64,000 nt of DNA from a virus. Made by a program: the position numbers and the translations under genes. This document shows, in pieces, positions 2,705 to 63,161 of this stretch. The first letter of the stretch is position 1. Every line of letters begins with the position of its first letter. The notes under the pieces were generated by a model that did no database searches, was not told where the DNA came from, and worked only from the letters and a program-made list of their open reading frames with translations. The stretch is taken from the IMG/VR virus record IMGVR_UViG_3300029305_006219; one strand, 5' to 3'.

Positions 2705-3187
2705 TTAACTAATCCTTTCTGCGTATTGATTGGGAGAAGCCAATTTTACGCCAAGTATTTCATCATAATGTGACTCAGTATTTGGAATATAGCGCCCAAA
2801 TTTTATTATGATGTTTGAAAATTGTTTTAATTGAATTAATTCATTTTCAATCTCATCTTTATTATAACCTGTATAGATAATAATATCATCATTTATAGAA
2901 TAACATTCTCTAAAAACAAAGATAAGATTTAACAGGTCTTCAAATGTATCAAAAGGTTCTAGACCTTGGAAGCATATCGCGCGCGCGATAGGGTTGTTTC
3001 TATAAGCTTGTACTATTGAAGTGTTAGCAATTTCTTTATCAGGTGCGGCCACCAGTGCGCTATTTTGACACACTGGTTGGCCGCATTCACGATCGCATTT
3101 AAAACCTTTACAAATAGGCGTTTCTATTGTCATACAAGGAACTTTATAATTTACAAAATCTTCAAATATAATTCCTTTTATTTTCAT
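2705..3187 (-). CDS. nrdG: Anaerobic ribonucleotide reductase activating protein (NrdG-like radical-SAM activase)
   Basis: Sits immediately downstream of nrdD with ATGA overlap. IIIYTGYNKDEIENE and GLEP motifs resemble NrdG WVWTGY.LDEL and GGDP. The Cys cluster is non-canonical. Confidence 0.55.
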   Translation of the reverse strand: MKIKGIIFEDFVNYKVPCMTIETPICKGFKCDRECGQPVCQNSALVAAPDKEIANTSIVQAYRNNPIARAICFQGLEPFDTFEDLLNLIFVFRECYSINDDIIIYTGYNKDEIENELIQLKQFSNIIIKFGRYIPNTESHYDEILGVKLASPNQYAERIS

Positions 3188-6100
3188 TTATTAATAGGCT
3201 CCCATTTTCTCATTTTATATTCATTAGTTCTTTCTTTTGACCACGTCTTTATAGGGGTGTAAAAGCCAACGATACGAGTATATTCTGTTTCAACTGGTCG
3301 ACCACATACTGGACAAGTGCGTCCATAGAAGGCATGGTTATTATCACAAGCTTGAATCTTGGTATTAAAAGCAAAATATGTTACTCCTGCATCAGAGATA
3401 TAATTAACCATATCCCAAGCCTTATCAAAACTATCAAATGGGGCATCGATATTGGCGTGTAGGATCGAACCTCCATTGCAATATCCATCAAACTCTGCGG
3501 CGATACGTACGCGCTCGGCAAGGGTTGTTTGTATACCAAGCGGAATAAATTGATTACCATAAAGCGGTAAGTCAAAGATGCTCGCTTCCGGATAAAAGAA
3601 TTTGTCTTTTTTCATTAGCTTTGCGGCAGCCGACTCTCCGGGGATCTATTCAGTATTAACGTGATAATCGGCGCCTACCTCTGCAATAAATTCATCTGCC
3701 GTTTGACGTATAGTCTCAAAGATTCTTTTACCAAGCGACGAAGCATTTTCTGTATAGTAAACATTGCCAAATTCATCTGTACGAGTATAGCCAAAACGCT
3801 TCATTGTTTCATATACTCCGATAAAACCAATAGTATTATAAAGATGTTCAAAGTCGACTAACCCATTAGAAAAATTAGGTAATAGTCCTTTTTCAACATT
3901 ACGACGAATAATATTACGTACACAATGTAGTGCTTGAAGATTCAAAAGTGTCAACTTCTTCAATCCACATAGATATTCAAATTCATTAGCACTATCAAGA
4001 GCGAGGCGCGCGAGGTTGATTGTAGAGACTTTAACTGAACCGACTTTTAGTGCGGTACCTCCGATACTATTAAAATAACCTAGGTCTTTAATATCACTCT
4101 TCAAACGACAACAGTTAGAAAGTGAAGTTACTGAATCATCAATAAATAGGTTACTGTCAGACCAGCGCATATTGTGTTTAACTGCCCAGCGCGCAAAATC
4201 TTCATCTTGGAATTTACCTTCTTGTTTTAGTAGAGAGATTGAAAGTACTGGAAAAGTAAACATATTCTTGTCCCTGATATCAGCAACGGTTTCCATATAC
4301 CATTTTTGGAATTCAATAATTTCTTCTTCATAGTCAATCATAAATTCTCCATTAGGGAACTCACTGCCGCCAAATAAAGCTTCGTAGTAAGGACGATCAA
4401 ATACACTGGTATTAGTAAATGCAGATTGCGACCCATCGCGGACATAAGGTTGATTCACTGCGTATACAAAACGCTGGAAGTTTTGACGTGCATATTTCTC
4501 TCCATTTCCGCTACTCTTGATACCGAGATAGTCTTCTTCCATATCCTTATGCCAAAAGTAATACATATAAGGGATGAGATTAGGAAGTCCTACGGCGCCG
4601 GAGGAACGATTAGAAGCATAGCTAATAAACTCTTTAACAAAATCAACAAAAGTAGTTAAATGCTAAGCAGGCTCAGGATTAAAAGGTGCGCCAATAAAAT
4701 ATAGTCCTTTTTCAGCCAGGTCTTTCAGGTCATAAGCAAAACAATTATGAGATAGAATGTTGTTGCAAATAAAATGACCTGTTTTTGTTGTTAAGTCATA
4801 TACCTCAGGGCATTCATCAATATACTCTGAGTTATCAATAACTGAGACCCATCCATAGTTATATTCATATTGCTTGTTTTTAAAATTACCTTTACGAGTT
4901 AAAGGAATATATTTTTCAGCAATTTTAATACTTCCAATACGAGAAAAATATTCTTCGTTCGTTAAAGTGAAGCCAATCCCAAACATTGGTAACTTTTGTT
5001 CGAAGCTTCCAGCTCGATTATATCTAAATGGAGTGCGATCTCCTGCAAAAACCCCTTTGGAATGTAAATACATACTCAATTGATGGCATAGCGTTTCTGA
5101 GGCAATACGGATATGACAATGTCTATTTTTATATCCATCAATAGTACCATCGCCATCGATCATTCCCGCAATAATTCCATCCATAAATTCAGAAGGATAA
5201 GTCATGAAATATGATGGTAACTGCTTAGTTGCAGAAGTCTGACCTTTTAATAGTGAATTTAACCATTCTTCAAAAGGACTAACCTTTAAATAAATTTTTC
5301 TATCTCCACTTTCTGAATATGGAATATCATATTGGTCACAGATATATTTTAATTTTTCAGCTTGAGGAGAATCTAGTTTTTGAGCAATTACAAATTGACT
5401 ATTCAGACTATTTCCTTCGGAAAGAGCCATACCTAATATCCATCCTGTCTCTCTATTATAAGGAATTTGATATACAATTTCTTGATGACTTTCAGAATAT
5501 TTATTAGGCTGTATTGTAAAGACTCGATACTCACTAGTTACATCCTTTGCAGGAATATCTCCACAATCGGTAATAATAGGGTGATCTTCTGTTACAATTT
5601 GTGATAAACCATTTGCTAACTTGATAAAACGCATAGGTTTATTATTTGTGTGTTTAACTGCGCGAGTAATCTTAGTCCAACATTTTTCTCCAGTTTCTTC
5701 ATTAATATCAAGTATCTCGATATTTTTCGGGAAAAGTGCATTTTGTTCAATAGATACATCATATTTTTCTTCTGCTTCTGTATCCATATACAAAATATTT
5801 TCATACAAATTCTTAAGTGCAAAAGTGTATTCACGATGCACCTTGTCTCTTACTGTTACAAGTTCTTCACCCTTATAGCAGTAATGTTTAAAGGTCGAGG
5901 TATCAGCATCATGCATGTAGAGCTGACCAATCCATTCGGCGCGCAACCACTCATTTGCACGTTTAAAACCAAAATGTTTTTGCATCTCATAATGAATTTT
6001 ATTATAAGCTAATAATTTTCTATGAGGTTTTGGCATTTCGTTTAAGAGAGTTACAATATCTTTTTTACTAACATTACTATTGCCATCAATACTCGCGTCA

Positions 6101-6321
6101 GCTACGACTTTGGTATCGATAAATGAACTAATAAAATCTGTGTAACTTAATTGTTCATCAGCAAATCCATTAAGCTTTGCCATTTCAGTTCCAAATTCAT
6201 CTTGCATTTTGTTATAAGCAGTAACAAAATTTTTCTTTAATTTAACATTAACTTCCATATCTCCAATGATATCCTCCTGTTGTTTGTAAAAATCCTTGAC
6301 AGCATCGAGATATGTTTTCAT
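3184..6321 (-). CDS. nrdD: Anaerobic ribonucleoside-triphosphate reductase NrdD, intein-containing, read through 2 in-frame TAG codons
   Basis: ORFs 4663..6333, 3646..4566 and 3184..3615 are one reading frame separated only by TAG at 4663-4665 and 3646-3648. C-terminus has a CPVCG zinc site and a RIVGFYTP glycyl-radical motif. TGA stop overlaps the nrdG ATG. Confidence 0.85.
4744..5880 (-). mobile_element. Intein (about 379 aa) with LAGLIDADG homing endonuclease domain inside nrdD
   Basis: Starts CYKGEEL and ends ILSHN followed by +1 Cys (CFAYDLKDL, aligning with E. coli NrdD FNC-MLIDLKG). Contains LGMALSEGN and IAGMIDGDGTI dodecapeptide blocks. Confidence 0.7.
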
Positions 6322-8000: not shown

Positions 8001-11000
8001 TCATTCTTCCATATCCTTTCTTTCATGAACTAGTTCCATATCGCGTCCGTTATTAAGCAATGATATTTTATAGATTTGGTGCGTCGGGGTATGCTTATAG
8101 GTCTTGGTTACGAACTGGTCACCACGTTTATAGCCAGTTAAAAGTAGCATCGTTCCTCTCTTAAACCAGCCCTTTTCTGTTATCTTCTTAGATCCATCAT
8201 CCTGAAGCTCCGACAATTGTTTCTTGTACTGCGCATAATATTCCTTCGTAAACTTAACAGTGACAACACCGCTTGGAGTTAATAGAGTAATAGATGCTTT
8301 ATTATCATTTTTTGCGATTACAGTTCCGATAATCTTATGCGTTTTCCAAATCGGAATCTGTTGACCATTGCGCTTGAAATAGTAGTCAACCTCGGGCTCT
8401 TCTGGAAGCGCAAAGAAGTTTGAAATACCATACTTATAGGTGTCAACATTTGCTAACTCATGCTCGTGATAATAGAAACATAGAGACTCCATTTCCCAAG
8501 AGGATAAAGATCCTTGAGCATATTTATTCCAAGTATCCATAAAGAGCTGTGTATTGAGTTGGCGCAAAACCTCACTCTGATTCTCCTTCAACCAATCACG
8601 GGCGCCATCCATCTGTTTCTGATAAATACCGTCCCAAGTCTTTTGTTGAATACAAGTTAATCCATTGATAACTTCAAGTTTTTCAATATCAAAGTGACCT
8701 TTATAGAATTTATCACAAGGTTCATCAAATACAAAGTATTTTCCAACTTTTGTATTTGCTTTGAGATATTTATTAAACTCAAAAACTCTGCGCTCAAAGT
8801 CAAGTGACTCTGGAACCAGACCACGCTGAATAAGTCCGTTAAAGTTCTGCAAAGTTAGTTTACTTTTAGGCTCACAAGCTTTTGATAAATAATATGCCAT
8901 AGCTACGAAACGAGGATGGATATTTAACTCTTTACCCCATTCTGCTTCAAGCTTATCAAAGGCGCCCGCCTTGATAAGAGAAATCATCTGTGTTTTATTA
9001 AGAGGACAGCGCTCCATAAAATCGGCGATATTAGCATACGGTCTGCCGCAAATTATCTGCTCAATAACTTCGCTATTGATTCCGCTTAATGCTTTCATAC
9101 CAAAGAGGATTTGATTATTTTCTACGTCAGGCTTAAAGCTGAATTGAGATTTGTTTATATCAACTAAAGATACATTAATACCAGCGGAAATAATATCTCC
9201 TAAAGCACGAGCAAGTTTTGTATAATCAGTCTGTTTATCTTTTGCCTCTTCATCGTCATCTTCATTGTCATAGCCTTCAAGTGAGCCACTATTAACAATT
9301 AGATTTGCGGTATTCCAATAAATTGGATTCCATCTAGTCGCAGCATACGCAGTCTGGAATCCTATAAATGAATAGGCTAGAGCATGGATTATGGAGAAGG
9401 AATAACCCATCTGGGGTCCAATTCCATGTTTCCATACATAGTGACCCATGCATGGAGAGCTAGCCTGATCAAGAACTTGTTGTTGTAAAGCAGGAATCTT
9501 AGACATTTGCTTTTTTCCGACAATTTTTCTGGCGGCGTTGGCATCTGCAAGGCTAAACCCACAAATCTTGGGATCCATCAACATCTGCATCATCTGCTCC
9601 TGAGAAGGTGGAACACCGTGAGACTTTAAGAAGTAAGGTTTTAATACCTCTTGCTCCTCTTTGGTTAAGCCAAATTCATCCATTTCTTTATACCAAAGGT
9701 TAATATTATTCTTAAAACGAACATACTTTTCCATTGGGGTTTCCTGACCTTTTTCATTTGTCATAAGGCGCATTAAACCATTGGCGTCCGCCAGCTCAAG
9801 GATACTTGATGGACGAATCTTTTTAGCCGCTTGGGCGCCCACATCTGAGTCAAACTGGAAAAGACCTAATACTGCAACATCTTGAATAGGTTTCCAATAC
9901 TTTTCTTCTTCAATAGGAAGAACATTCGGATGAAAATATTTATCATATATCTGGCGCAAGGTCATATCTGACTCTAATTCGCCAGTCTCTTGCAGCATAT
10001 TAATAGTCTCTACGAGTTTGTCTTGTACTTCTGTTACAAGGAAGTCATATTTCACCATTCCAAGTGCCTCACAAGTGTGAAGATCAAATTGCGTTATAAC
10101 TTCACCTTTTGGAGTTCTCATGAATGCGCCAAACTCATATGGATCTTCATCAAATAAAATTACTCCAGATGCGTGAGATGAGCGCTTGTTCTTAAGACCT
10201 TCAATCGAAGTCATAATTTCCAAAAGTCCAGGATAATGATTTACTTCTCGAACGAATGACGCTACTGGTTTACGATCTTTATCTGGGTTACCATTAACAA
10301 CATCATTGATACTCCATAAGAAACCACGCTCTTGCGGAACAAGAGAAGTAAGATACTGCGCCATATCAACATCAATACCGTCCGGATATTCTTCACTACG
10401 ATAGCCGCGGCAAGCGGTCAATATTGCGCTCTTTGTAGTTTCCGTACCAAAAGTTGCAATAAGAGTACAACCTAAGTTTGCGCGAGACAGTTCATCAATA
10501 TCTGTATTAAACTTGGCTCCACGTTCTTCTTTAATTTTCTTAAGAATATAGGGTCTTTTACTTGGACAAAGGTCTAAGTCGATATCACCGAGTTCTACTC
10601 TTTCCTTATTGAGGTAGCGCCAGAAGGGAAGATCCCACTCTATAGGATCAAGCTGGGTAACTCCAAGGAGATAATGGTTTAGGCCTGAGCAGCTTGAACC
10701 ACGACCGGCGCCAACCATAGAACCGCATTCCCAAAAGAGATCAATATAATGCTGAAGAGTGACAGGATATGCAAACATATTTGTTTCCAATTTTTCACTA
10801 ATCGTTCTCTTGATATCTGCTTCTTCTTCAAGTCTGTCGAGATATTGAGAAAATTCAACGATTAAATCATAACTGGTAGCTTTCTTTTTATTTGCCAAAC
10901 TTTCAAAACATTGATTTACCCAATATCGTTCCACCTTATTTTCAGAATTAAATAGACTATTCAAAGTAGGGTAATGTGTACCGATAAAATATTCATCGTC

Positions 11001-11978: not shown

Positions 11979-12866
11979 TTATTCTATATACCTCCAATAA
12001 TATCCATATGCTTTTCTTTGCTTTCTGGCAGCTGCGCAAATATTACTTTTATCTTGTAATCCTAGAGCTCTAGCTGCATCTGCTCCAGAGTCATATTCAG
12101 CAATTATGCTATTATCTAACGTGAGTTGTTGAATTCTTTTCTTAGGGCGTCCACTAGATAACTTATTCTAATAAATTTGTACCCACTCTTGGATATCTCT
12201 TTCATCTGCTTTGTATTTCCAAAGAAAGCCGTAAGCACTTTTCTATTTCTAAGCACATACCTAACTAATTGCTGTTTGTTGAAAACCATTAGCCCTGCCG
12301 CACTCTGAGGCTGATTCCCATTCTTGGATAAAATATCCATTTAAATCATACTGTAGTACAGGATAAGCACATCGTTTTGCTACTGCGCAACCAAATCTTG
12401 CGGCTATCTCTTCTCGTGAAATTCCTGCTCCTCTTAATCGAAGTCGGGCAGTTTTTTTTGAACAGCCTATTTTTTCAGCAATTTCTTTAATTAAAAGACC
12501 TTGATTCCAGCCATCAAGAAAAAGCTGAGTGGGATATAGAATCGCCCCTTGTCCTCCAAGAACTGCATTGTATCCATTATTAGGGTCGGTGCTGTCAAAA
12601 TATTCTATATAATACATTTCTCGCTCAAATCTAATTTCATCAGGGCATTTCTCTAGCGTTTCAATAATAAAATTTTGTTCTCCGTATTTTCGTATAGCAC
12701 AAGAAATATGATAATAATATCCATGATCACCTTCTTTAGAATGAGCCCTTCTTATATGTTCCCTCCACCTTGTCTCAACCCCTCGAATAGTTTCTCCTAT
12801 ATAAACTTTATTGTTTATTTGGTTGGTAATTTTATAAATATAAGCCATAAAATGCTCTCCTTTCAC
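11979..12866 (-). CDS. GIY-YIG homing endonuclease (HE2), 4 in-frame TAG
   Basis: MAYIYKITNQINNKVYIGET...R..H, then reading through TAGs at 12261-63, 12249-51, 12243-45, 12168-70 gives two C-terminal repeats KSAYGFLWKY and RKQRKAYGYYWRY. TAA at 11979-81 lies 3 nt before the dnaE ATG. ORF 12116..12340 in the other frame is spurious. Confidence 0.8.
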
Positions 12867-19801: not shown

Positions 19802-20554
19802 TCATCCTTTCTTTAAATAATTTTCTACATCTTCAATAAACAACCAATGATAACCATAGCCTTTAGTTTCACCTTTATTACGACAACTTCTACGAATGTG
19901 AGAACCATCTGTTTTTCCTAGTGCTCGAGCAGCGGTTTGACTTGATGAATACTCTTGTTTGGTTTCTATGCAATATACTGGTTTACTATTGGTTTTAACT
20001 GAATTTATTCGCATTTTATCTAATTTAATTTTTTCTTCTTCTTTATGACTATCCCAGTATACACGAGATGCCATTCTTCCTTTTAAGGTATTATTTTTTC
20101 GTTCTTCAAAAGAAGAATTTTCTATATATTTTACATTAATTTCCTTTAAAAATACTTTCTTTTCTTCTTTTTTATCTTCTGGTAAATTTTGCCAAGTATT
20201 TTTAGAAGCAATACCAATTTTCTTTTTAGTTTCTTCTGTGTGCAAATGTCCAAGCTGACCTCCTTTTGTTAAATTATATCCAAAATCAGGATTGTCACTT
20301 TTATAAAATTGGATATAAAATTTTTCCCAATAATCAGCTTCATTTTGACTTAGCAAGTTTTGTTTTAAAATTATATGCTCAAAATTATCCCATCCATATT
20401 TTTCAATGGCAGAATAAAAAAGAGGGCTTTTAATATATTGCTTTCCATTAGCTCTCCATCTCTACTTTATATTACAGCTTTGTCCTATATATCTTTTCTA
20501 ATTTTGCTTATTAACATGAGCATAGATACACCATTTTTTAATATTTTCATTCAT
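19802..20554 (-). CDS. GIY-YIG homing endonuclease (HE3), 2 in-frame TAG
   Basis: MNENIKKWCIYAHVNKQN[TAG]KRYIGQSCNIK[TAG]RWRANG...YGWDNFEHIIL then ORF 19802..20356, ending in a C-terminal CRNKGETKGYGYHWLF repeat. Note the genomically encoded Q in YIGQS. TAGs at 20498-500 and 20462-64. AAAGGAGG RBS. Confidence 0.8.
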
Positions 20555-25223: not shown

Positions 25224-25700
25224 TTATTGAGCTGTATTTATCAAATCTTTAAGTTCCGTCACAATAAGGTCAAGCGCTTCTGTCTGTTCGCGAGAGCACT
25301 GAGAAACTTTTTGTCCTTTACCAAGATATTTCTCTATGCATTGACTAATACGAGGTTGCCAATAAGTTTTGAATGTTTCTTCGTCGCTTTGAACCGAGAG
25401 GTCTTGAATCATTGAGTTAAACTGCATCATAAGTTCATCGAAATCAAGTTCTTTTGAAACGAATGTATGCAAGTTGGCGCCAGTATCTGTGAAGTATTGA
25501 GTTCCATCCTCAGCCGCCTGTCTATCAATAGCATCTCCTATTGCATTAACAAGAGCATTATAGTTGAAGTCAATATAATCAGGCGTATACTTAAATCTAC
25601 TTCCAGCTACGAAACGAGGAGTTCCGCGCATAAAGAGTTTTGTAGATTTCTCACCAGACTCAGACTCAACAGTTCTCGCATATCCTATTATGTCCTTTAA
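25224..25700 (-). CDS. AAA_24/Sak4-like ATPase, 3' exon (C-terminal part)
   Basis: ORF 25224..25715 continues the ATPase sequence interrupted by the group I intron. The exact 3' splice site is not resolved. Confidence 0.45.
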   Translation of the reverse strand, partial: LKDIIGYARTVESESGEKSTKLFMRGTPRFVAGSRFKYTPDYIDFNYNALVNAIGDAIDRQAAEDGTQYFTDTGANLHTFVSKELDFDELMMQFNSMIQDLSVQSDEETFKTYWQPRISQCIEKYLGKGQKVSQCSREQTEALDLIVTELKDLINTAQ

Positions 25701-26690
25701 TACCCTCTTTTTCAAGATATTTTAATGGGAATAGACTATATCTTCATCCATTTTAAACGGTGGATGTCATGCACTTCGATTTAAAGGATTTTCACCTACT
25801 TTTATATTATTATAAAAGCCCTACTCCTGTTGAGGAAATTTCATCCTCCAGTGGGATAGTCGTTGAACCTTCTCCTATTCGGAGCTTGGCTGCTGATTGC
25901 CCAATTTAATCAATTTTTAACATTCGCACTTAGATTTCTTTCATTCTTATGCTGTAGTTTGATTAACTCTAAGGGGTTTCCAGCAATTCACATGATTTGC
26001 TTAATGGATTGCTCCATTAAGGGCCTTATATATTTCATATTTTCGTCTCAACCGAGAGGCCTCGGTTGAATGTTCATAAATTTTATTTAAAATTTGTACA
26101 ACTGCAGCGCCTTCTTTATGAATTTGATAAGCAGAGGTTCCACAAGGACTTACTTTATTATCAAACTCTAAAATTTCTAGCATTTGTTTTGTGCAGATCT
26201 CAGTTTGACTGACAAAACTTAAACTAGGAATATTGTTTCTATCTTCTCTAATGTGAATACTACCATCTGCATCTAGCAATCCTCTTGCAAAATCATAAAT
26301 ATATTCATTAGGAATGTTTTCAAGGGGAATACTAAAAATAGAGGTTTTTGCAGGTACTATATTATATTGTGCTAAATAACGTTTTAACTCTGCCGAGTTT
26401 ATAGATACAGTTAAAGCATGACATCCAGTGTTATTAGTACGCTCTGTAATGGGCGCATTAGATTCAAAGAATGCTTGTAAATTTTCAAGCTGCTCTCTAT
26501 CTATATCTTTTAACTCAACTCTTACTCTGGCTTCATTTTTAGCTACATTTCCATCTCCAGCTAAAAATCCAAGCCAATAATATTTTTCATGAGGGTCTAT
26601 TTTAATGTTTGTTAAATTTAAAGGATATTTTCTCAAAAAACTTTCAACTCCTTCTTTAAGAGAGCGAAAATATGAAATAAAAATGTTAAG
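25700..26690 (-). mobile_element. Group I intron interrupting the AAA_24 ATPase gene and carrying a LAGLIDADG endonuclease ORF
   Basis: Minus-strand core elements: P-like AATTGCTGG (about 25950), Q-like AATCAGCAGCC (about 25890), R GTTCAACGACTA (25849-25860), S AAGATATAGTCT (25726-25737). Upstream exon ORF ends at a TAA at 26686. Boundaries are approximate. Confidence 0.6.
26001..26636 (-). CDS. Double-motif LAGLIDADG homing endonuclease (intron-encoded)
   Basis: LGFLAGDGNV and ARGLLDADGSI motifs. TTG start with an AAGGAG RBS. Confidence 0.75.
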   Translation of the reverse strand: MRKYPLNLTNIKIDPHEKYYWLGFLAGDGNVAKNEARVRVELKDIDREQLENLQAFFESNAPITERTNNTGCHALTVSINSAELKRYLAQYNIVPAKTSIFSIPLENIPNEYIYDFARGLLDADGSIHIREDRNNIPSLSFVSQTEICTKQMLEILEFDNKVSPCGTSAYQIHKEGAAVVQILNKIYEHSTEASRLRRKYEIYKALNGAIH

Positions 26691-27252
26691 CCATACGGTT
26701 TACAATATTACGAGGTTTATTATCAAGAGTAGGAACAATCTGATTATACTCATTGCCATTTTGATCCTTAAAGGTTTTGTCTTGCGCGTGAGAAATAATT
26801 ACTAAGCCGTATCCTAATTGAAGGATTGAACGAAGCGCGCTATCAAACTCTTGCGCTGCCATTTTGAAGCCCTTTCCGTAACCAATGTCACCGATGCTAT
26901 CGACGCCTATAGAGCCATCTGGACGAACTGCATTGGCGCAAATATATTTCTCACAATAGTCATAGGCTATATCAGCTGTATCAAGGATAATAGTTTCGAA
27001 TCTAGCTTTAACCTGTTCATTCTTTAACTGGCGCAAGAATTTTTTAAACTCAGACCAACTATTAATAGGTTGTGCCATGGCGCCGGGAATTGCATTATAT
27101 CCTTTTTCAAAAGCCGCCAAAAGATGATTAGGGAATTTAGTCGCGGTAGTAGTTTTACCGGTCTTTGCGTCTCCATAGAAGAAGACGCAATAACCGCGCA
27201 TATCTCTTGAAACCTAATGAGGCTAAATATCAAGTAAATTAAAATCTGCCAT
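26690..27252 (-). CDS. AAA_24/Sak4-like ATPase, 5' exon, 2 in-frame TAG
   Basis: MADFNLLDI[TAG]PH[TAG]VSRDMRGYCVFFYGDAKTGKTT (Walker A) ...ISHAQDK. TAGs at 27223-25 and 27214-16. RBS AAAAGAGG. Confidence 0.6.
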
Positions 27253-29975: not shown

Positions 29976-30083
29976 TTTTGGTCGTACATTTTAAAAACAA
30001 AGCTAAAACAGTCTCCCCAAGACCAAAACTCTTTTTCTTCAATATCACCAATTTCATCTGTCCATTCTAGTTTAATATACATT

Positions 30084-30308
30084 TAACTATTTCCGCGAGT
30101 TTTATTCAGTCCAAAATCATATGTCTGATAGAGGTCAATATAAAACTTCTCCTTTTCATTTAATTCATTGATATTACATTTTTCAAGTATTTCAAAAGTA
30201 AAGTTATCAATACCCTTTTCTTTTGTAAATGCATAAAGTTGACTTGTTACAGGGGTATCGATACCTAAGCTGCATTTGACATGCGTTACCCAGCGCTCTT
30301 TAATGTTG
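30084..30308 (-). CDS. GIY-YIG endonuclease HE5, 3' exon (second half of the catalytic domain)
   Basis: Reads CNIKERWVTHVKCSLG...DNFTFEILEKC...GLNKTRGNS with an in-frame TAA immediately upstream, so it cannot stand alone. It matches the continuation expected after YIGQA in paralogs (HE3: YIGQSCNIKQRW). Confidence 0.5.
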
Positions 30309-31598
30309 CATTAATTTTGACTATTTTTTACTGTAATTTTTATTACAGGAAACCATTTCGGCATTTAAAGTACTTCGTTTCCTAAAATACTACTATGTGC
30401 TAATAATAGCCCTACTTCCCCGCCCATAAGGCCTAGGGAATAGTCGATACAGGTTTTTCAATTAATCCATTATTTTCTAGCAGGATAATCATAATCTTTA
30501 AGAATATAAGTTTTTCCTAAATTAATATTACTTATAGTTGAACGCCCTATGTTATATTGTGCACCAATATTATCCATAGAAGTATTAGTATTACGTAACA
30601 GATCTAAAATATTCTAAACATCCTCTAAAGTTAAATTATGATTATTGCGAATGTTTTTTGCTCTAATAGGATAACTATATTTCCCTATTTCTGCAAATTT
30701 TCTTCCATTATTAATGTCTCTTAATACCCTGATTGGAATATTATATTTAATATCTATACCACCTTGAATTGGTAAATCCCAACGATACAATAAATCTTCT
30801 TTTAAATTAACTAGCTCTTCTTCGGAGGAAAAATAATCTAAAACTTCTGTCTTACACGCTGAGTCATGATTATTTTTTCTTAATGGGTAAACTAAGTTTG
30901 GATTAACATAGGTTCTACCTGTTGAAATATTTAATATAGTACCTTGTCCTACTCCATATTTATTACCTATCTCTGTTAAAGAAAACTCTGTATGATTAAT
31001 TAACAAATCAATTATTTCTTTAAGTTGATTTTCATTTAAAGCTGCATTAGGATTTTCAGTCCCTCGTTTCCCCGAAGCGTCTCCTCCTCGGGTTTTATTG
31101 TATCCGTGTCCATCTTTAATATAGGTTTTATAAAAGGAAATCCAATATCTTTCTTTATCATCTAATAACGATAAGTCAGAAACTGTTTCAAGTAATTCAA
31201 ACTCATCAATAATAATATTGTATTCTTTCATTTTTTGCTCACACAATAGAAGTTCTCTTGAACCATGTCCAGCTTGACTATAAGAATTATGCTCCATAAG
31301 TCTAGCTCGAATATTTTGAGCCTATCCAATGTAAGCTTTTCCGTTTGGGTAATTAATTTTATAAATTCCGCTAATAATGTCATTTGGTGTCATCTTAGAT
31401 AAAAATAATTTTTGCATTTTATGCCTCCTATAATGTTATATTCATCAGTTGTTCATATATATATTATTTTTATGGAAGATGGATTAATCAAAATTTCCCA
31501 CGAGATTGTATTTTATTAAAAAATATTTTCCTCGTTAGCCACTATAAGTTAGCGACCCCTAGCAGCTACTAGGTAAAGTTTTTCATCGGCCAACATTG
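30309..31598 (-). mobile_element. Putative group I intron carrying GIY-YIG HE4, inserted in GIY-YIG HE5
   Basis: 5' exon ends ...YIGQAGT, followed by an in-frame stop VNVGR*. Intron ends in G before exon 2 CAACATT. R-like TCGACTAT and S-like ATAGTCAA lie in the 3' 170 nt. Boundaries are proposed, not proven. Confidence 0.45.
30470..31417 (-). CDS. GIY-YIG homing endonuclease (HE4) with tandem C-terminal HTH repeats, 2 in-frame TAG
   Basis: MQKLFLSKMTPNDIISGIYKINYPNGKAYIG[TAG]AQNIRARL... then ORF 30614..31297. The TAG at 30614-16 reads through into a second HTH repeat DNIGAQYNIGRSTISNINLGKTY before TAA at 30470-72. GGAGG RBS. Confidence 0.75.
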
Positions 31599-32566
31599 AC
31601 CGCTTGTCCGATATAAGATATACCAGAGTCAATGTGTGTTATCTTATATATTCCACTGGCGCCCAACGCACCTACGCGCGCCGCAAGGTCATTGACTTTA
31701 TCTCTATAGAAAGTAGTCCATATAAGCATACGCAAAGGTCTTGCTTCGCGTAGATTATATTCAATACTTTGAAGATATGCCACGTCTCGCTTATCTGCCT
31801 CATTAAGTTGAAGAGTATAAAATGTTGCTTGATTTTTAATTTCTTCTTCACGAAGTTGTGCTTCCATTGTGGCGGCCTTGGTTGCACGAATTTTTTCTAG
31901 CTCTTTGCGGATTGAGTCTAGGTCGGCGCGCATTGCCGCCTCTTCTTCTTGTAATTCTTTAGACATTGACTATTGCTTATCATAAAATAATTGCACAAGA
32001 GTGTCAATATCTTGACGTCGCTCTTCAATTAATCCTTTTTCTCTTGCATCAAGTTCTTGAAGTCTGTCAAAATATAATTGATCAAGAGTGTCCACTTCAA
32101 TATCGAACTCTTGTTCGCGTTTTTGATATTCATAATCAAGAGTCTCACAATATTGTTCAAAGGAGGCGAGCGCAGCTGCCTTTAAGTCACCTGACATTGT
32201 CTCTACAGAGCTGCTGAAAGCAGCAATTTGCGCCTCAATTCCTGCTTTTTCAATTTGCTTATTTTGAATTTCATTTATTAACAACAATTTCTATTGAGTT
32301 AATTGATTTAATTCGTCGTAAGAATTTTTTGTTTTTTTACAGTTCTCTTCATATTTTTGAGAAATTTCATTGTTAGATTTTATCAATAAGTTATTTTGTG
32401 CTTCTAAGCTTTTGCGAGTTGCTTGTAATGACTAATTGAGTTCTTCTAGTTTCTAATTTTCTTCTGCTGTATAGCGATTAGCTTTTACAGATGTGGCTTT
32501 AACCCATACTCCATAAGCAAGACCGCTCACACCAAGAAGAATTGATATTACGCATAATACTATCAT
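31583..32566 (-). CDS. Membrane-anchored coiled-coil protein whose C-terminus is the 5' exon of GIY-YIG HE5, 4 in-frame TAG
   Basis: N-terminal TM helix MIVLCVISILLGVSGLAYGVWV, then a long coiled coil. ORFs 31970..32287 and 31583..31966 are joined by TAG 31970-72; further TAGs at 32453-55, 32432-34, 32291-93. Ends GASGIYKITHIDSGISYIGQAVNVGR*. Confidence 0.5.
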
Positions 32567-41062: not shown

Positions 41063-41137
41063 TGGCAGGGGAGGTAGGAATCGAACCTACGTCTGTGGTT
41101 TTAGAGACCACGGTCTTGACCTTTCGACGACTCCCCA
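41063..41137 (-). tRNA. Amber suppressor tRNA, tRNA-Gln-like, anticodon CUA (reads UAG)
   Basis: Minus-strand sequence UGGGGAGUCGUCGAAAGGUCAAGACC GUGGU CUCUAAA ACCAC AGAC GUAGGUUCGAUUCCUAC CUCCCCU G CCA. The anticodon stem is 5 bp Watson-Crick and the loop is CUCUAAA. U1.U72, G2-C71, G3-C70 and the G73 discriminator follow the bacterial tRNA-Gln pattern. It closely parallels the tRNA-Gln(UUG) at 62245-62316. Confidence 0.75.
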
Positions 41138-51639: not shown

Positions 51640-54477
51640 TCACGAGTTATAATCGTTGTTTGCTATTATCATATCAGTTAGTTTTACAAAACCCTGAGAC
51701 ATTGAGTTGATGTCGACGTAAAACTGATTATCATAATAATTTGTATCGATAACCTGATTATATTCATCAACATAAAATCCGCTTGTGTTATATGGAGTGT
51801 TAATCCACTCTTGCCAAGTCATACCTTCTAAGGCGGTGTATGATGCTCCGTTAACGGTAAAGGTAATTATAGGCAATGTTCTTGTAAGAGTATATGTGTG
51901 ATTTGCTACGATTGTATCACTTGTTTTAACATATTTATATATGATGTTACCATCCTCATCTTCGTCTTCTCTCAAACATATAAGATTTCCCGTCATGTCC
52001 TCACAAACATATCCAGGTATCAATGGATCACTCCAATAATTTTCAGAAGGAACATAGTAACTGCCGTCGCTGGCGTTCATAAAATCAGCCCAAGTCATAC
52101 CCTCGGTGACTGTATATGATTCATCTCCTGCATCGTTACCGTCAATATAGAATGTTATTGTGCTAGGTGTTGGCTCTTCTTCGTTTTCAAAATTAAAGTA
52201 AATATCTATTTGAGTATCTGTTGAAGTCGTATAATCAATTGTAAGGTTATTGTTTTCAATATCGATAGAGTTAATATTTGAAGTTAAATTATCAATACCA
52301 TTTAAGGTTATTAATTCATTGTTCTACGAACCCATATTTATTGTTTTAGTATTTTCAGTTGCAAGAAGCTCTATTGATATTGGGCTTGTTATTTCTACTT
52401 CAATCCCTACAGCATCGATATAATAGTTACATCTTCCTATAATAATATCCAAATCACGACAATGTCTACCGCTACCATCATTAAGCCATACTGCGCCGAT
52501 ATATCCATCTCCATCTTCATCGATAATAGATTCTGCTACACAGTTTTCTTCTCCGTTAACAGTAAGAGAGTTCCAAATAACAAAATCCTTTGTATTATAC
52601 GCGCTATCGCACCATTCATACCACGTCATACCAGGCTCAGCCATGTATGTTATTCCTTCAATAGTGAAAGTGATTTCAAGTGTAATATATGAATCATCTA
52701 TATAATATACACCATTTTCTGTAATTGTATCATTATAAGATACCATCATCTTGATATCATCGCTATTGTAGTATACTGCGCCGATATATCCATCTCCATC
52801 TTCATCAGTTGCAGATGTTGCTATTAAGTCTTGATTATATGAGCTATTATAAGGAACAAAACCTGCTTTATTATATGAGCTATTACACCAATCGCTCCAA
52901 ATCATATTCCTATTAGATGTGTATTCTGTTCCATTAATAGTAAATGTTATTGTACTTGTTTCGTTTTCAAAACTAAAGTAAGCATCTATTTGAGTGTCGG
53001 TTGAAGTTGCATAATTAATTGTAAGTTCATTATTTTCATTAATATTAATAGAGTTGATATTTGAAGTTAAATTGTCAATACCATTTAATGTTAATCTATT
53101 CTATGAATCTATATTTACTGTTTTAGTATTTTCAGCGGCAAGAAGCTCTATTCTCATTGGACTTGTTGTTCCTGCTGGTATGTCTCCAATTGTGTATGTA
53201 TAATTTGCCATAATAAGACTACTTGGGAAAACTGGCTTACTACCATCATTGCAATATACCGCTACTTGTGATCCCTCTTCTACCACAAAACCATCTTGAA
53301 TAATATAGTATGTACCATATTCACTATTCACCCAGTCTTGCCAAGTCATACCTTCTTCAAATCTATAGAACTCGTCTCCCGTTAGATTATCTTCGATATA
53401 AAATATTGAGGTTGAAATAGGTAATGAATCTGAAACTATATATGAATGATTTATTCTAATAACATCACTGGGTTTAACAGCAGTGTACTCATTTAAAAGC
53501 ACATATCGACCTGTAGAATTTTCTATTATATAATCATTTTGAACTACATATTCTGCATCATCATTACTTGAAATACTATCAATCCATTCTTGCCAAGTCA
53601 TACCACTCTCGGCGAAATATGATTCTTTTTGCATATCATTTCCTTCAATATAAAATGTTATCATACCTACAATATAATCTCTATAAACACTCCAATTTGT
53701 TGCTGCTTTCCAATCATCAACAAGTTCATAGGGAACTCTAATTTTACAATTTGAAGGAATGTTTAAAAAAGCACTTGTATTAGCAAGAGTTGGTATACTT
53801 GTATGAAAAGAAAAATCGTAATATTGCATTGAAGTACAGTTGGCAAATGCGCTTGATCTAATAGTTGTAACGCCATTAGGAAAATTCATTTGTGTAAGAG
53901 CCTTACACCCATAAAAAGCTTGCTCTCCAATTGCTGTAATATTACTAGGTAGAGTTATGCCTGAAAGAACTTTACAACCGCTAAACATGCGATATCCAAT
54001 CCAGGAAATATTACTGGGTAAAGATATATCTATAAGAGATGTACAATTATAAAATGCTTCATCTCCTATTTTTGTAATACTATCGGGTAGACTTAAACTC
54101 TTAAGCTTAGCACAATTAGTAAAAACACCTACTCCAAGTTGTGTAATAGTGTTAGGAATAATTATATTTGCATTTGACTCAAGTCCATGACAATTTGAAA
54201 AAGCATAATCACCAATATAAGTAATATTATTTGGTATATTTATTTTTGTAAGATATGTGCAGCCCTCAAAAGCAGCTCGTCCTATTTTTGTTATATTAGC
54301 TAAATCCTGTGTAGTTATTTCAGTAATTGTTCTATCAATTATTTTAGCTAGTTTACTTTGTTCTTCTGTATCTGCATTTAAAGCCGTTACAATAATATCA
54401 CGATCGCAATATTTACCTGCTGTTTTTAAACGAATGGAAGATCCGCTTGTTACATTTATATTATGTTCAGCCATCAT
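51640..54477 (-). CDS. BspA-type leucine-rich-repeat tail fiber/receptor-binding protein with C-terminal tandem repeats, 2 in-frame TAG
   Basis: ORFs 53101..54477, 52324..52905 and 51640..52098 are one frame joined by TAG 53101-03 and TAG 52324-26. LRR_5 repeats (NITYIGDYAFSNC...). Repeated (R/S)IELLA(A/T)ENTKT(V/I)N(I/M)(D/G)S and GMTWQEW blocks. Confidence 0.6.
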
Positions 54478-62163: not shown

Positions 62164-62244
62164 ATTTAAATAGCTCCTTTTTATACTTATTATCAACTTT
62201 TAGCTTAACCCATCGCACACCACGTGGAGGTAGTTGATTAAGTG

Positions 62245-62316
62245 CGACCTGGGGTGGCTGGATTTGAACCAGCGGGTGTCAGAGTCAAAGTCTGATGCCT
62301 TGCCACTTGGCTACAC
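62245..62316 (-). tRNA. tRNA-Gln (UUG)
   Basis: UGGGGUG...anticodon loop CUUUGAC...GCUGGUUCAAAUCCAGC CACCCCA G. U1-A72 and G73. CCA is not encoded. Confidence 0.8.
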
Positions 62317-62561
62317 CCCAATAATATCTTAATTACATTAACTAATAGGAGTGATTTGCACTATTCCAAAGGCGATTACTCAACCTTCCTCCTTTAATCT
62401 TGTACAAGATTTGTGAACAACCTAAGTTACCGTTTCACTACGGAGTTAATGTTATTACGATTAGCGACCCCTTTCGGGCAATTTTGAATCGAGAATTTGT
62501 TGATGGAAACTCAGGTCAGGAGTTTATATTGCATCGCTTTATTTCTTACATATATATTATA

Positions 62562-63007: not shown

Positions 63008-63161
63008 TGGTGAGCCAAGCGAGATTCGAACTCGCGACCCCGTGATTAATGGTGCTTGAGGTTAGATTCGAACTAACAACCTAAAGCCGACTAAGCCCCA
63101 GACTTTACCAATTAAACATACTCAAACAAGTCACGTGCTCTTCCATCTGAGCTACTGGCTC
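63008..63161 (-). tRNA. tRNA-Lys (UUU) interrupted by a 78-nt insertion in the anticodon loop
   Basis: Exon parts GAGCCAG UA GCUC AGAUGGAA GAGC A CGUGA CUU | 78-nt insert | UUAA UCACG GGGUC GCGAGUUCGAAUCUCGC UUGGCUC A CCA. After removal of the insert the sequence closely resembles E. coli tRNA-Lys and the loop reads CUUUUAA. Confidence 0.6.
63050..63127 (-). other. tRNA-like insertion element (acceptor/T-arm minihelix with encoded CCA) inside the tRNA-Lys anticodon loop
   Basis: GUUUGAG...GUUAG UUCGAAU CUAAC CUCAAGC A CCA. The 7-bp acceptor pairing and T-arm are perfect. No canonical anticodon arm could be folded. Confidence 0.45.

Follow-up and report, generated by a model that had tools for sequence, protein, structure and literature searches.

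Group I introns of the IA2 type are well described in phages. Examples are the T4 introns in td, nrdB and nrdD, the SPO1-type introns, and those of Twort and the Bastillevirinae (PMC11878797). They interrupt conserved DNA-metabolism genes at the codons of conserved motifs. They begin with an in-frame stop, carry P7.1 and P7.2 hairpins, and encode a homing endonuclease with its own ribosome-binding site. The element described here has all of this in common with them. It lies on the minus strand of a 64,000-nucleotide (nt) stretch of virus DNA (IMG/VR virus record IMGVR_UViG_3300029305_006219, one strand; this whole stretch is what we call the window). It is a group I intron with a LAGLIDADG open reading frame (ORF), and it splits the gene of a Sak4-like AAA_24 ATPase. 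We argue that it is very probably a mobile intron with a free-standing, monomeric double-motif LAGLIDADG enzyme, carried by an uncultivated tailed phage that reads TAG as glutamine. A blastn search with its P4-P7 core gives matches to annotated or unannotated introns in Pseudomonas, Staphylococcus, Bacillus, Streptococcus and Clostridioides phages.

This is a known kind of selfish element, and at the level of sequence it has every mark of a mobile group I intron that encodes a LAGLIDADG homing endonuclease. It stands apart from the classical phage introns by the position of its ORF, its endonuclease family and its host gene. The ORFs of T4 and SPO1 introns sit in P6, P8 or P9 loops, whereas here the P1 loop holds the ORF, which shares bases with the guide sequence and with P2. 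Phage introns mostly encode GIY-YIG, HNH, PD-(D/E)xK or EDxHD endonucleases rather than LAGLIDADG enzymes (Hausner et al. 2014, PMC3984707), and one LAGLIDADG case is listed for the Bastillevirinae introns (PMC11878797). A literature search turned up no paper that describes an intron in a Sak4/AAA_24 gene. With this element the catalogue gains a new host gene and one more of the LAGLIDADG introns that are uncommon in phages. With I-AniI, the I-OnuI family and I-DmoI/I-Tsp061I its enzyme shares two LAGLIDADG helices, a catalytic aspartate in each, and a predicted pseudo-dimeric fold. It differs from the I-AniI/I-OnuI-type enzymes in being phage-borne, in sequence (10-18% identical) and in length (211 amino acids versus 250-300 for I-AniI and I-OnuI).

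The phage also has described counterparts. TAG as glutamine and a phage transfer RNA (tRNA) with anticodon CUA are common to the window, the Agate phages (Borges et al., bioRxiv 10.1101/2021.08.26.457843) and the Phassvirus phAss-1 group (PMC10607447). The TAG-to-glutamine phages of Phassvirus are about 133-136 kilobases (kb) long and are related to Enterococcus phage EF1 (PMC10607447). Contigs of the window's relatives are about 130-147 kb, and EF1 is the nearest cultured relative. The window probably belongs to this broad Agate/Phassvirus-like recoded group. No nucleotide-level match was found in a phage collection, and a megablast search with 24 kb of the window did not bring up any closely related cultured phage. 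In the Agate phages a group I intron endonuclease in an early gene is preferentially recoded, and it has been proposed that recoding delays its production (bioRxiv 10.1101/2021.08.26.457843). Here the endonuclease ORF is instead free of TAG and the host gene holds two. Genes with several introns are known too, such as orf142 of Twort and the cyanobacterial rRNA genes (PMC1995217). Relatives of the window likewise carry two to three introns per ATPase gene, whereas the window's gene has only one site occupied, between codons 188 and 189 (188|189).

Host gene, splice junction and ribozyme

The minus strand holds three ORFs at this locus: 26686..27201 with the Walker A motif YGDAKTGKTT, 26001..26636 with two LAGLIDADG motifs, and 25224..25715. 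An earlier note, made by a model from the letters, had proposed that a group I intron with a LAGLIDADG endonuclease splits an AAA_24/Sak4-like gene here. Rfam, the joined exons and covariation all bear this out. The note had the ATPase frame ending by 26686, and there is indeed a TAA at 26688..26686. It was right that a homologous continuation follows in ORF 25224..25715, but the first 21 nt of that ORF (25715..25695) are intron. They consist of the TTG chosen by the ORF finder and 18 nt coding KKRVLK. Reading in frame upstream of ATG 27201 leads to ATG 27252, which is preceded by GAGG, and the 17 N-terminal amino acids gained in this way (MADFNLLDIQPHQVSRD) are conserved among homologs. The parts of the gene are as follows.

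26689..27252, minus strand: exon 1 of the ATPase gene, codons 1-188, from the ATG at 27252 to its last base U26689
27174..27148, minus strand: Walker A of the ATPase, in exon 1
26991..26971, minus strand: Walker B region of the ATPase, in exon 1
25695..26688, minus strand: group I intron, 994 nt, starting with UAA in frame with exon 1 and ending in omega-G 25695
25224..25694, minus strand: exon 2 of the ATPase gene, codons 189-344 and the stop TAA 25226..25224, starting GAC AUA AUA GGA (DIIG)

Joined and read with TAG as glutamine, the exons give a single 344-amino-acid Sak4-like protein. It has one continuous AAA_24 (PF13479) match (2e-35, profile positions 2-195 of 195) that spans the junction, and it aligns without a gap to 10 uninterrupted homologs. 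These were the comparisons that the earlier note had proposed for the exons, and they come out in its favour. The Sak4 identity comes from a match to PHROG 124, 'Sak4-like ssDNA annealing protein' (2.9e-52). The closest homolog, P0001, is uninterrupted (97% identity in the alignment, 95% by BLASTP), and the closest homologs are about 344 amino acids long. SPbeta YorG is 30% identical. The best cultured match is found in EF1-type phages, at 48.7% identity, and there the gene is uninterrupted. A DnaB-like helicase flanks the ATPase, and the order in relatives is YorF-AAA_24-YorH-DnaB (the names YorF and YorH are taken from the relatives' precomputed matches). Walker A and B motifs and a recombination-module context point to an AAA_24/Sak4-like ATPase with a predicted annealing function.

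The exact junction follows from the homologs. The Rfam match described below ends at G25713, 18 nt short of the 3' end of the intron. Taking G25713 as the end gives 350 amino acids with six extra residues, KKRVLK. The homolog alignment rejects this insertion, which occurs only in the trial join, and therefore the junction is ...NRMA|DIIGY..., with omega-G at 25695 and exon 2 from 25694. A register with C at -1 and A at omega would give the GCG codon of an intron-less allele. It was rejected because all 8 fully delimited introns at this site keep U at -1 and G at omega; in each of them the 5' splice site follows a U and the 3' end reads ...AAAG. The predicted ligated junction is ...AUG GCU|GAC AUA..., and the spliced sequence would read ...CGTATGGCT|GACATAATAGG....

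Three related loci (L001-L003), which encode the closest uninterrupted homolog, have ATGGCG|GATATC at this position. They are uninterrupted and 89% identical at the nucleotide level over the 1035-nt coding sequence, and are therefore a natural intron-less allele. The candidate intron-less target sequence is CGTATGGCGGATATCATTGG or its GCT variant; in L001 it is AAATCGTATGGCGGATATCATTGGC.

The group I core itself is complete. Rfam RF00028 (Intron_gpI) matches 26068..25713 on the minus strand over its full model positions 1-253, with 78.2 bits (E 3.6e-18) against a gathering score of 50, so this further check proposed in the earlier note also turned out positive. A permissive Rfam scan of the whole window gave no further group I match. 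The R, S and other elements that the note had listed on the minus strand are all present, R and S aligning at J6/7-P7 and P7' of the model. The ribozyme stretch lies downstream of the ORF as the note had it, but it measures 306 nt after the ORF's stop codon and not about 285. The 3' end of the ORF also overlaps the guide sequence and P2, which is a further correction.

26022..26026, minus strand: internal guide sequence A-GGCC, the 3' strand of P1, pairing with U26688 and exon GGCU 26692..26689
26001..26020, minus strand: P2 hairpin UUAAUGGA-GCAA-UCCAUUAA, which holds the ORF stop codon; 5 pairs with compensatory changes
25995..25991, minus strand: P3 5' strand; 4 of 5 P3 pairs compensatory
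25985..25980 with 25896..25891, minus strand: P4, within the P3-P6 block 25867..25997
within 25867..25997, minus strand: P5/P5a extension; 5 of 8 P5a pairs compensatory
25890..25867, minus strand: P6; 3 of 4 P6a pairs compensatory
25857..25868, minus strand: R element GTTCAACGACTA / GUUCAACGACUA, with the P7 5' strand GACUA at 25861..25857 (Rfam alignment)
25856..25825, minus strand: P7.1, peripheral hairpin between P7 and P3'; compensatory changes in the P7.1/P7.2 helices
25819..25798, minus strand: P7.2, peripheral hairpin between P7 and P3'
25771..25767, minus strand: P3 3' strand CAUGA, within block 25733..25774
25766..25745, minus strand: P8, with compensatory changes
25733..25744, minus strand: S element AAGATATAGTCT / AAGAUAUAGUCU, with the P7 3' strand 25738..25734 (Rfam alignment)
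25729..25703, minus strand: P9, CCC...UCUU-GAAA-AAGA-GGG, with a GAAA loop; covaries
to 25695, minus strand: 3' tail UAUUAAAG after P9, ending in omega-G (P9 and tail together 25695..25729)

Covariation was examined in an alignment (A3) of mini-constructs from 8 introns at the same site. In each, 8 nt of exon are followed by the first 4 nt of the intron, the stretch running from the guide through the 3' end, and 8 nt of exon 2. Without any input structure RNAalifold recovers P1, P2, P3, P4, P5/P5a, P6, P7.1, P7.2, P8 and P9, and 41 of its 93 pairs are compensatory. When the structure is drawn up by named helices with P7 entered as a pseudoknot, pairing holds in 96.7% of cells, and both sides are changed in 41 of 87 pairs. 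The number of such pairs falls to 4-10 when that structure is slid by 1-3 columns, and the observed covariation is matched in 0 of 500 shuffles. Compensatory changes occur across these introns in P3, P5a, P6a, P7 and P8. P3 is the most telling helix, occurring as UCAUG/CAUGA, CCCAG/CUGGG, UUCCG/CGGAA and CUACG/CGUAG. The P9 hairpin has five variants (UCUU/AAGA, UCGG/CCGA, UCUC/GAGA, UUCC/GGAA, UUGG/CCAA), and in P7 the intron of L015 has replaced U-A by C-G.

A guide was looked for in the window just downstream of the 5' splice site and none was found there; it lies after the ORF, about 660 nt downstream and directly 5' of P2. P1 carries a G.U wobble at the 5' splice site. Across 14 related introns at two sites (88|89 and 188|189) the guide covaries with the exon. 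There are 5 exon/guide combinations (GGCU/GG[CU]C, GUGU/GCAC with a Cys codon, GGUU/GACC and GAUU/GAUC), and all 5 positions pair in each. Intron base +1 (U or A) is matched by A or U beside the guide. The guide lies after the ORF and pairs with the 5' splice site, and therefore the endonuclease ORF occupies the P1 loop. The last codons of the ORF (K-A-L-N-G-A-I-H-stop) hold the guide and the whole P2 hairpin (26020..26001). Since the ORF ends inside these elements, its translation and the folding of P1/P2 should compete. ORFs that run into core sequence are known, and tight control of their expression has been stated (PMC3984707).

A stretch resembling part of the core was also seen in a cultured phage. 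At 8463..8519 of Enterocloster phage CB457P1 (L033), 57 nt are 94.7% identical to the P6-P7 core of the window intron. They fall in an unannotated gap, and the gene beside it bears the annotation 'intron-associated endonuclease 1'. A group I intron that has escaped annotation is probable here, but it was rejected as a homologous insertion, being in a different gene with a GIY-YIG endonuclease.

The endonuclease and the proposed mobility of the intron

The double-motif LAGLIDADG ORF named in the earlier note is present, and it is preceded by its own ribosome-binding site.

26653..26648, minus strand: Shine-Dalgarno sequence AAGGAG of the endonuclease ORF, from the start context
26001..26636, minus strand: double-motif LAGLIDADG homing endonuclease ORF, 211 amino acids, TTG start, stop TAA 26003..26001 (Pfam, 24 homologs, AlphaFold/Foldseek)

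Its motifs are YWLGFLAGDG (with D28) and RGLLDADG (with D124), and both catalytic aspartates are invariant in 18 homologs. Database homologs number 24. Pfam matches are LAGLIDADG_3 (PF14528, 2.6e-8) and LAGLIDADG_1 (PF00961, 1e-4, no single stretch of which passes the threshold alone), and a sequence profile matches 2dch, a putative archaeal homing endonuclease (2.6e-5). An AlphaFold2 model built on the homolog alignment has a predicted local distance difference test score (pLDDT) of 90.4 and a predicted template modelling score (pTM) of 0.89, and shows a tandem alpha-beta-beta-alpha-beta-beta-alpha arrangement. The best 50 Foldseek matches in the PDB are all LAGLIDADG enzymes, maturases or intein endonuclease domains, among them I-AniI (1p8k, E 7e-9), the I-OnuI family (1e-6 to 1e-5), the bI3 maturase and E-DreI. 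Compared with a 96%-identical copy from another sample, the ratio of nonsynonymous to synonymous substitution (dN/dS) is 0.086, and the ORF is therefore under purifying selection. With an intact, selected ORF and this predicted fold the enzyme looks functional, and cleavage activity is predicted. A hairpin that might hide the Shine-Dalgarno sequence is no more stable than those of shuffled sequences (z = +0.86), and we make no claim for it.

Relatives show that the insertion is polymorphic. An IMG/VR scan with the endonuclease alignment found 19 loci; the same scan with the single endonuclease protein gave no matches. The relatives' contigs and the IMG/VR loci have an endonuclease ORF inside Sak4-like genes. 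Eleven related loci are counted with an insertion at the same RM[AC]|D..GY site, which is seen in L004-L015 and L024 and where ATPase identity to the window is 36-77% (lowest 36-38%). Among close relatives L001-L003 are intron-less and L009 and L010 are intron-plus. This combination of site polymorphism with the same site in divergent genes is what marks a mobile intron, and homing would be the process behind it. In L023 a related endonuclease gene is free-standing, just upstream of an intact ATPase gene.

Our proposed mechanism is the following. In the pre-mRNA, exon-end GGCU and the first intron base would pair with the distant guide A-GGCC to form P1 with its wobble. The core P3-P8, with P7.1/P7.2, would bind guanosine in P7 and cleave after U26689. 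Omega-G25695 would then dock and the exons would be ligated, restoring the 344-amino-acid ATPase. Because the first three bases of the intron are an in-frame UAA, a ribosome translating exon 1 on unspliced RNA would terminate at the splice site. For the endonuclease, translation would begin at the TTG behind its own Shine-Dalgarno sequence. In mixed infections the enzyme would cleave, at this same site, alleles that lack the intron, and the intron would be copied into them during repair.

The Sak4-like gene of relatives is interrupted at other sites as well: 31|32 inside Walker A (L005, L007, L017), 88|89 at Walker B (L016-L022), and about codon 127 (L013). There are up to three intron-like insertions per gene, each at conserved-motif codons, and the inserts at 31|32, 88|89 and 188|189 contain LAGLIDADG ORFs. 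Scored with a profile of the site-188 cores, the ribozymes at site 88 do as well as the site-188 introns themselves, and on this comparison the cores at the two sites are clearly homologous. The site-88 endonucleases are 42-46% identical to the window's. At the homologous position the site-88 guide is GACC or GAUC, matching exon GGUU or GAUU. It is a serious possibility, short of being probable, that an intron plus LAGLIDADG lineage moved as a unit between 88|89 and 188|189, with guide and endonuclease retargeted each time. Because the guide lies inside the last endonuclease codons, changes in ribozyme specificity and in the C-terminus of the protein are physically coupled. If the idea is true, these introns would be a natural series on how a group I intron and its homing endonuclease jointly acquire a new target. 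The comparative set for such retargeting already comprises 14 introns, two sites and five exon/guide pairs.

TAG recoding and the weighing of alternatives

The earlier note had also pointed to two in-frame TAGs in the upstream exon. Both are there, between ATG 27252, to which the gene start is corrected, and ATG 27201, the start picked by the standard-code ORF finder.

27214..27225, minus strand: two in-frame TAG, codons 10 and 13 of the ATPase (27225..27223 and 27216..27214), which align with glutamine
41063..41137, minus strand: tRNA with anticodon CUA (ARAGORN)

Homologs have glutamine at position 13 in 10 of 10 aligned sequences and at position 10 in 8 of 10. The intron-less allele of L001-L003 retains both TAGs, and L009 has a glutamine codon (CAR) at the first. 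The tRNA-CUA has the acceptor end UGGGG with G73, which we take to resemble tRNA-Gln, and from this end it would be charged with glutamine. Reading TAG as sense lengthens many minus-strand ORFs, and at least 10 other long ones need TAG read-through. Examples of long ORFs with in-frame TAG are 54477..51640, 6321..3184, 32566..31583, 12848..11979 and 20554..19802. This recoding reaches beyond the late genes, into the replication and recombination module. On the sequence both ATPase TAGs appear best explained by TAG-to-glutamine recoding (genetic code 15). The window's endonuclease ORF has no TAG, and those of L011, L014 and L015 carry one or two. In recoded phages, homing or splicing might be timed by the TAG content of either gene, that of the endonuclease or that of the host protein.

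To a standard-code gene caller the recombinase gene appears as three ORFs, one an 'endonuclease' and the other two P-loop fragments; recognizing the intron and the recoding restores one protein. In Phassvirus genomes a 'LAGLIDADG endonuclease' and a 'P-loop NTP hydrolase' are variably present and no intron is mentioned (PMC10607447). The same breakup of the gene probably explains such pairs of annotations in related published genomes.

It is worth considering other ways to read the locus. If the TAGs were ordinary stops, the ATPase would start at ATG 27201 and the stretch upstream would be untranslated. That ATG does stand directly before the Walker A strand, and the database homolog P0002 is called from the equivalent methionine. 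However, the 17 codons upstream are conserved as protein with glutamine at the TAG positions, one relative spells the first of them CAR, and a good Shine-Dalgarno sequence precedes ATG 27252. With a tRNA-CUA of tRNA-Gln-like acceptor end in the window and so many other ORFs in need of read-through, we regard ordinary stops as very unlikely. A more radical suggestion is that the gene is permanently split by an endonuclease gene and never spliced, leaving two separate polypeptides or a dead gene. Phage genes split by free-standing endonuclease genes exist. The gene of L023 is an example of a related enzyme outside any intron, and exon 2 has no obvious start of its own except the in-frame TTG at 25715. 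Yet the group I core is complete and well above the Rfam threshold, and the guide tracks the exon sequence, which makes sense only if P1 forms and the RNA is spliced. Joining the exons at the junction, with U at -1 and G at omega, reproduces the homolog sequence exactly. The dN/dS of the ATPase exons is 0.027, which means strong purifying selection, and we argue that a dead or permanently split gene is extremely unlikely.

A decaying relic deserves a closer look. The ribozyme would still splice, and the endonuclease would be inactive or on its way to being lost, leaving an immobile element that is perhaps kept as a maturase. Homing endonuclease genes commonly cycle through invasion and decay, as one report also has it (PMC13619312). 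The best fold match, I-AniI, is both an endonuclease and a maturase. More distant relatives have an ATG one codon upstream; here the start is a TTG that follows AAGGAG by 11 nt, a long spacing, and expression may be low. This last point weighs against our interpretation of an active mobile intron, as do several others. P1 has 4 exon base pairs and 1 intron pair, which have to form across some 660 nt. By our reading P10 is weak or absent in the window intron versus 5 base pairs (bp) in the L007-type relatives, and a convincing P10 could not be drawn. Neither the exact ligated-exon sequence nor an identical intron-less allele was found in the JGI and IMG/VR contigs; that search gave only distant intron-less alleles, with GCU at codon 188 and about 67-70% nucleotide identity over the aligned pieces. 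Hairpins between P7 and P3' are the hallmark of subgroup IA, and the assignment of the intron to IA is probable from P7.1/P7.2 alone, so that IA2 as against IA1 or IA3 is a matter of interpretation. Splicing, cleavage, homing and any maturase role are predictions from sequence. Even so, the ORF is full-length with both catalytic aspartates, it is under purifying selection by comparison with the copy from another sample, and intron-plus and intron-less alleles coexist among close relatives, as expected of an active element. We consider a relic unlikely and a mobile intron with a working endonuclease the better account.

A second group I-like intron and other observations in the window

A second group I-like intron of 1290 nt lies at 31598..30309 on the minus strand, between exons 32566..31599 and 30308..30083. 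The gene that it splits codes for a coiled-coil protein of 397 amino acids whose C-terminal domain is GIY-YIG. Once the exons are joined, 364 of 397 residues are identical in a gap-free alignment to P0145, an uninterrupted homolog. U31599 is the last base before the 5' splice site, and the intron ends in omega-G 30309. Its guide, AAUGUUG-GCCG, pairs with CGGU of the 5' exon and is a perfect 7-bp complement of CAACAUU in the 3' exon (P10). A GIY-YIG endonuclease ORF with 2 in-frame TAG occupies 31417..30470. It is bracketed by a 9-bp stem, AUUAAUCCA/UGGAUUAAU, which we read as P6. Downstream are P7 (GACUA/UAGUC), P7.1/P7.2-like hairpins and P8; these helices were read by eye. Neither the whole-window scan nor a permissive local one gave an Rfam match to this intron.

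Part of the second intron recurs elsewhere. About 100 nt at 30355..30458, which make up its P7-P7.2 part, are 84-90% identical to Enterococcus phages EF1 and EF5 and to Prevotella Lak megaphages. Rfam found no intron at the EF1 locus. Introns of this kind may be present there and have gone unrecognised. At the gathering threshold Rfam also misses the site-188 introns of L005, L007 and L008. At an E-value threshold the intron of L005 is found with 45.4 bits, and L007 still gives no match. Rfam alone under-counts introns here, with relatives below the gathering threshold and the second window intron missed.

Two further observations concern tRNA genes. A local scan gives a match to RF02682, a hepatitis delta virus-like ribozyme (HDV-F-prausnitzii), at 62181..62248 on the minus strand with 37 bits (E 8e-5), short of the family's gathering score (44). 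The match begins precisely where tRNA-Gln(UUG) 62248..62321 has its 3' end. The same arrangement has been described in recoded gut phages, where 'theta' ribozymes adjoin tRNAs (PMC10879173). At 63011..63161 on the minus strand Rfam finds a tRNA over 151 nt with 50 bits. Its outer halves pair as an acceptor stem of 7 bp and as an anticodon stem, whose loop reads as anticodon UGU. Between them is an insert of about 77 nt that scores as a tRNA in its own right (63053..63127, 31.4 bits), with CCA after it. ARAGORN calls neither 63011..63161 nor 63053..63127 as a tRNA. Either one tRNA gene has disrupted another here, or the two are nested.

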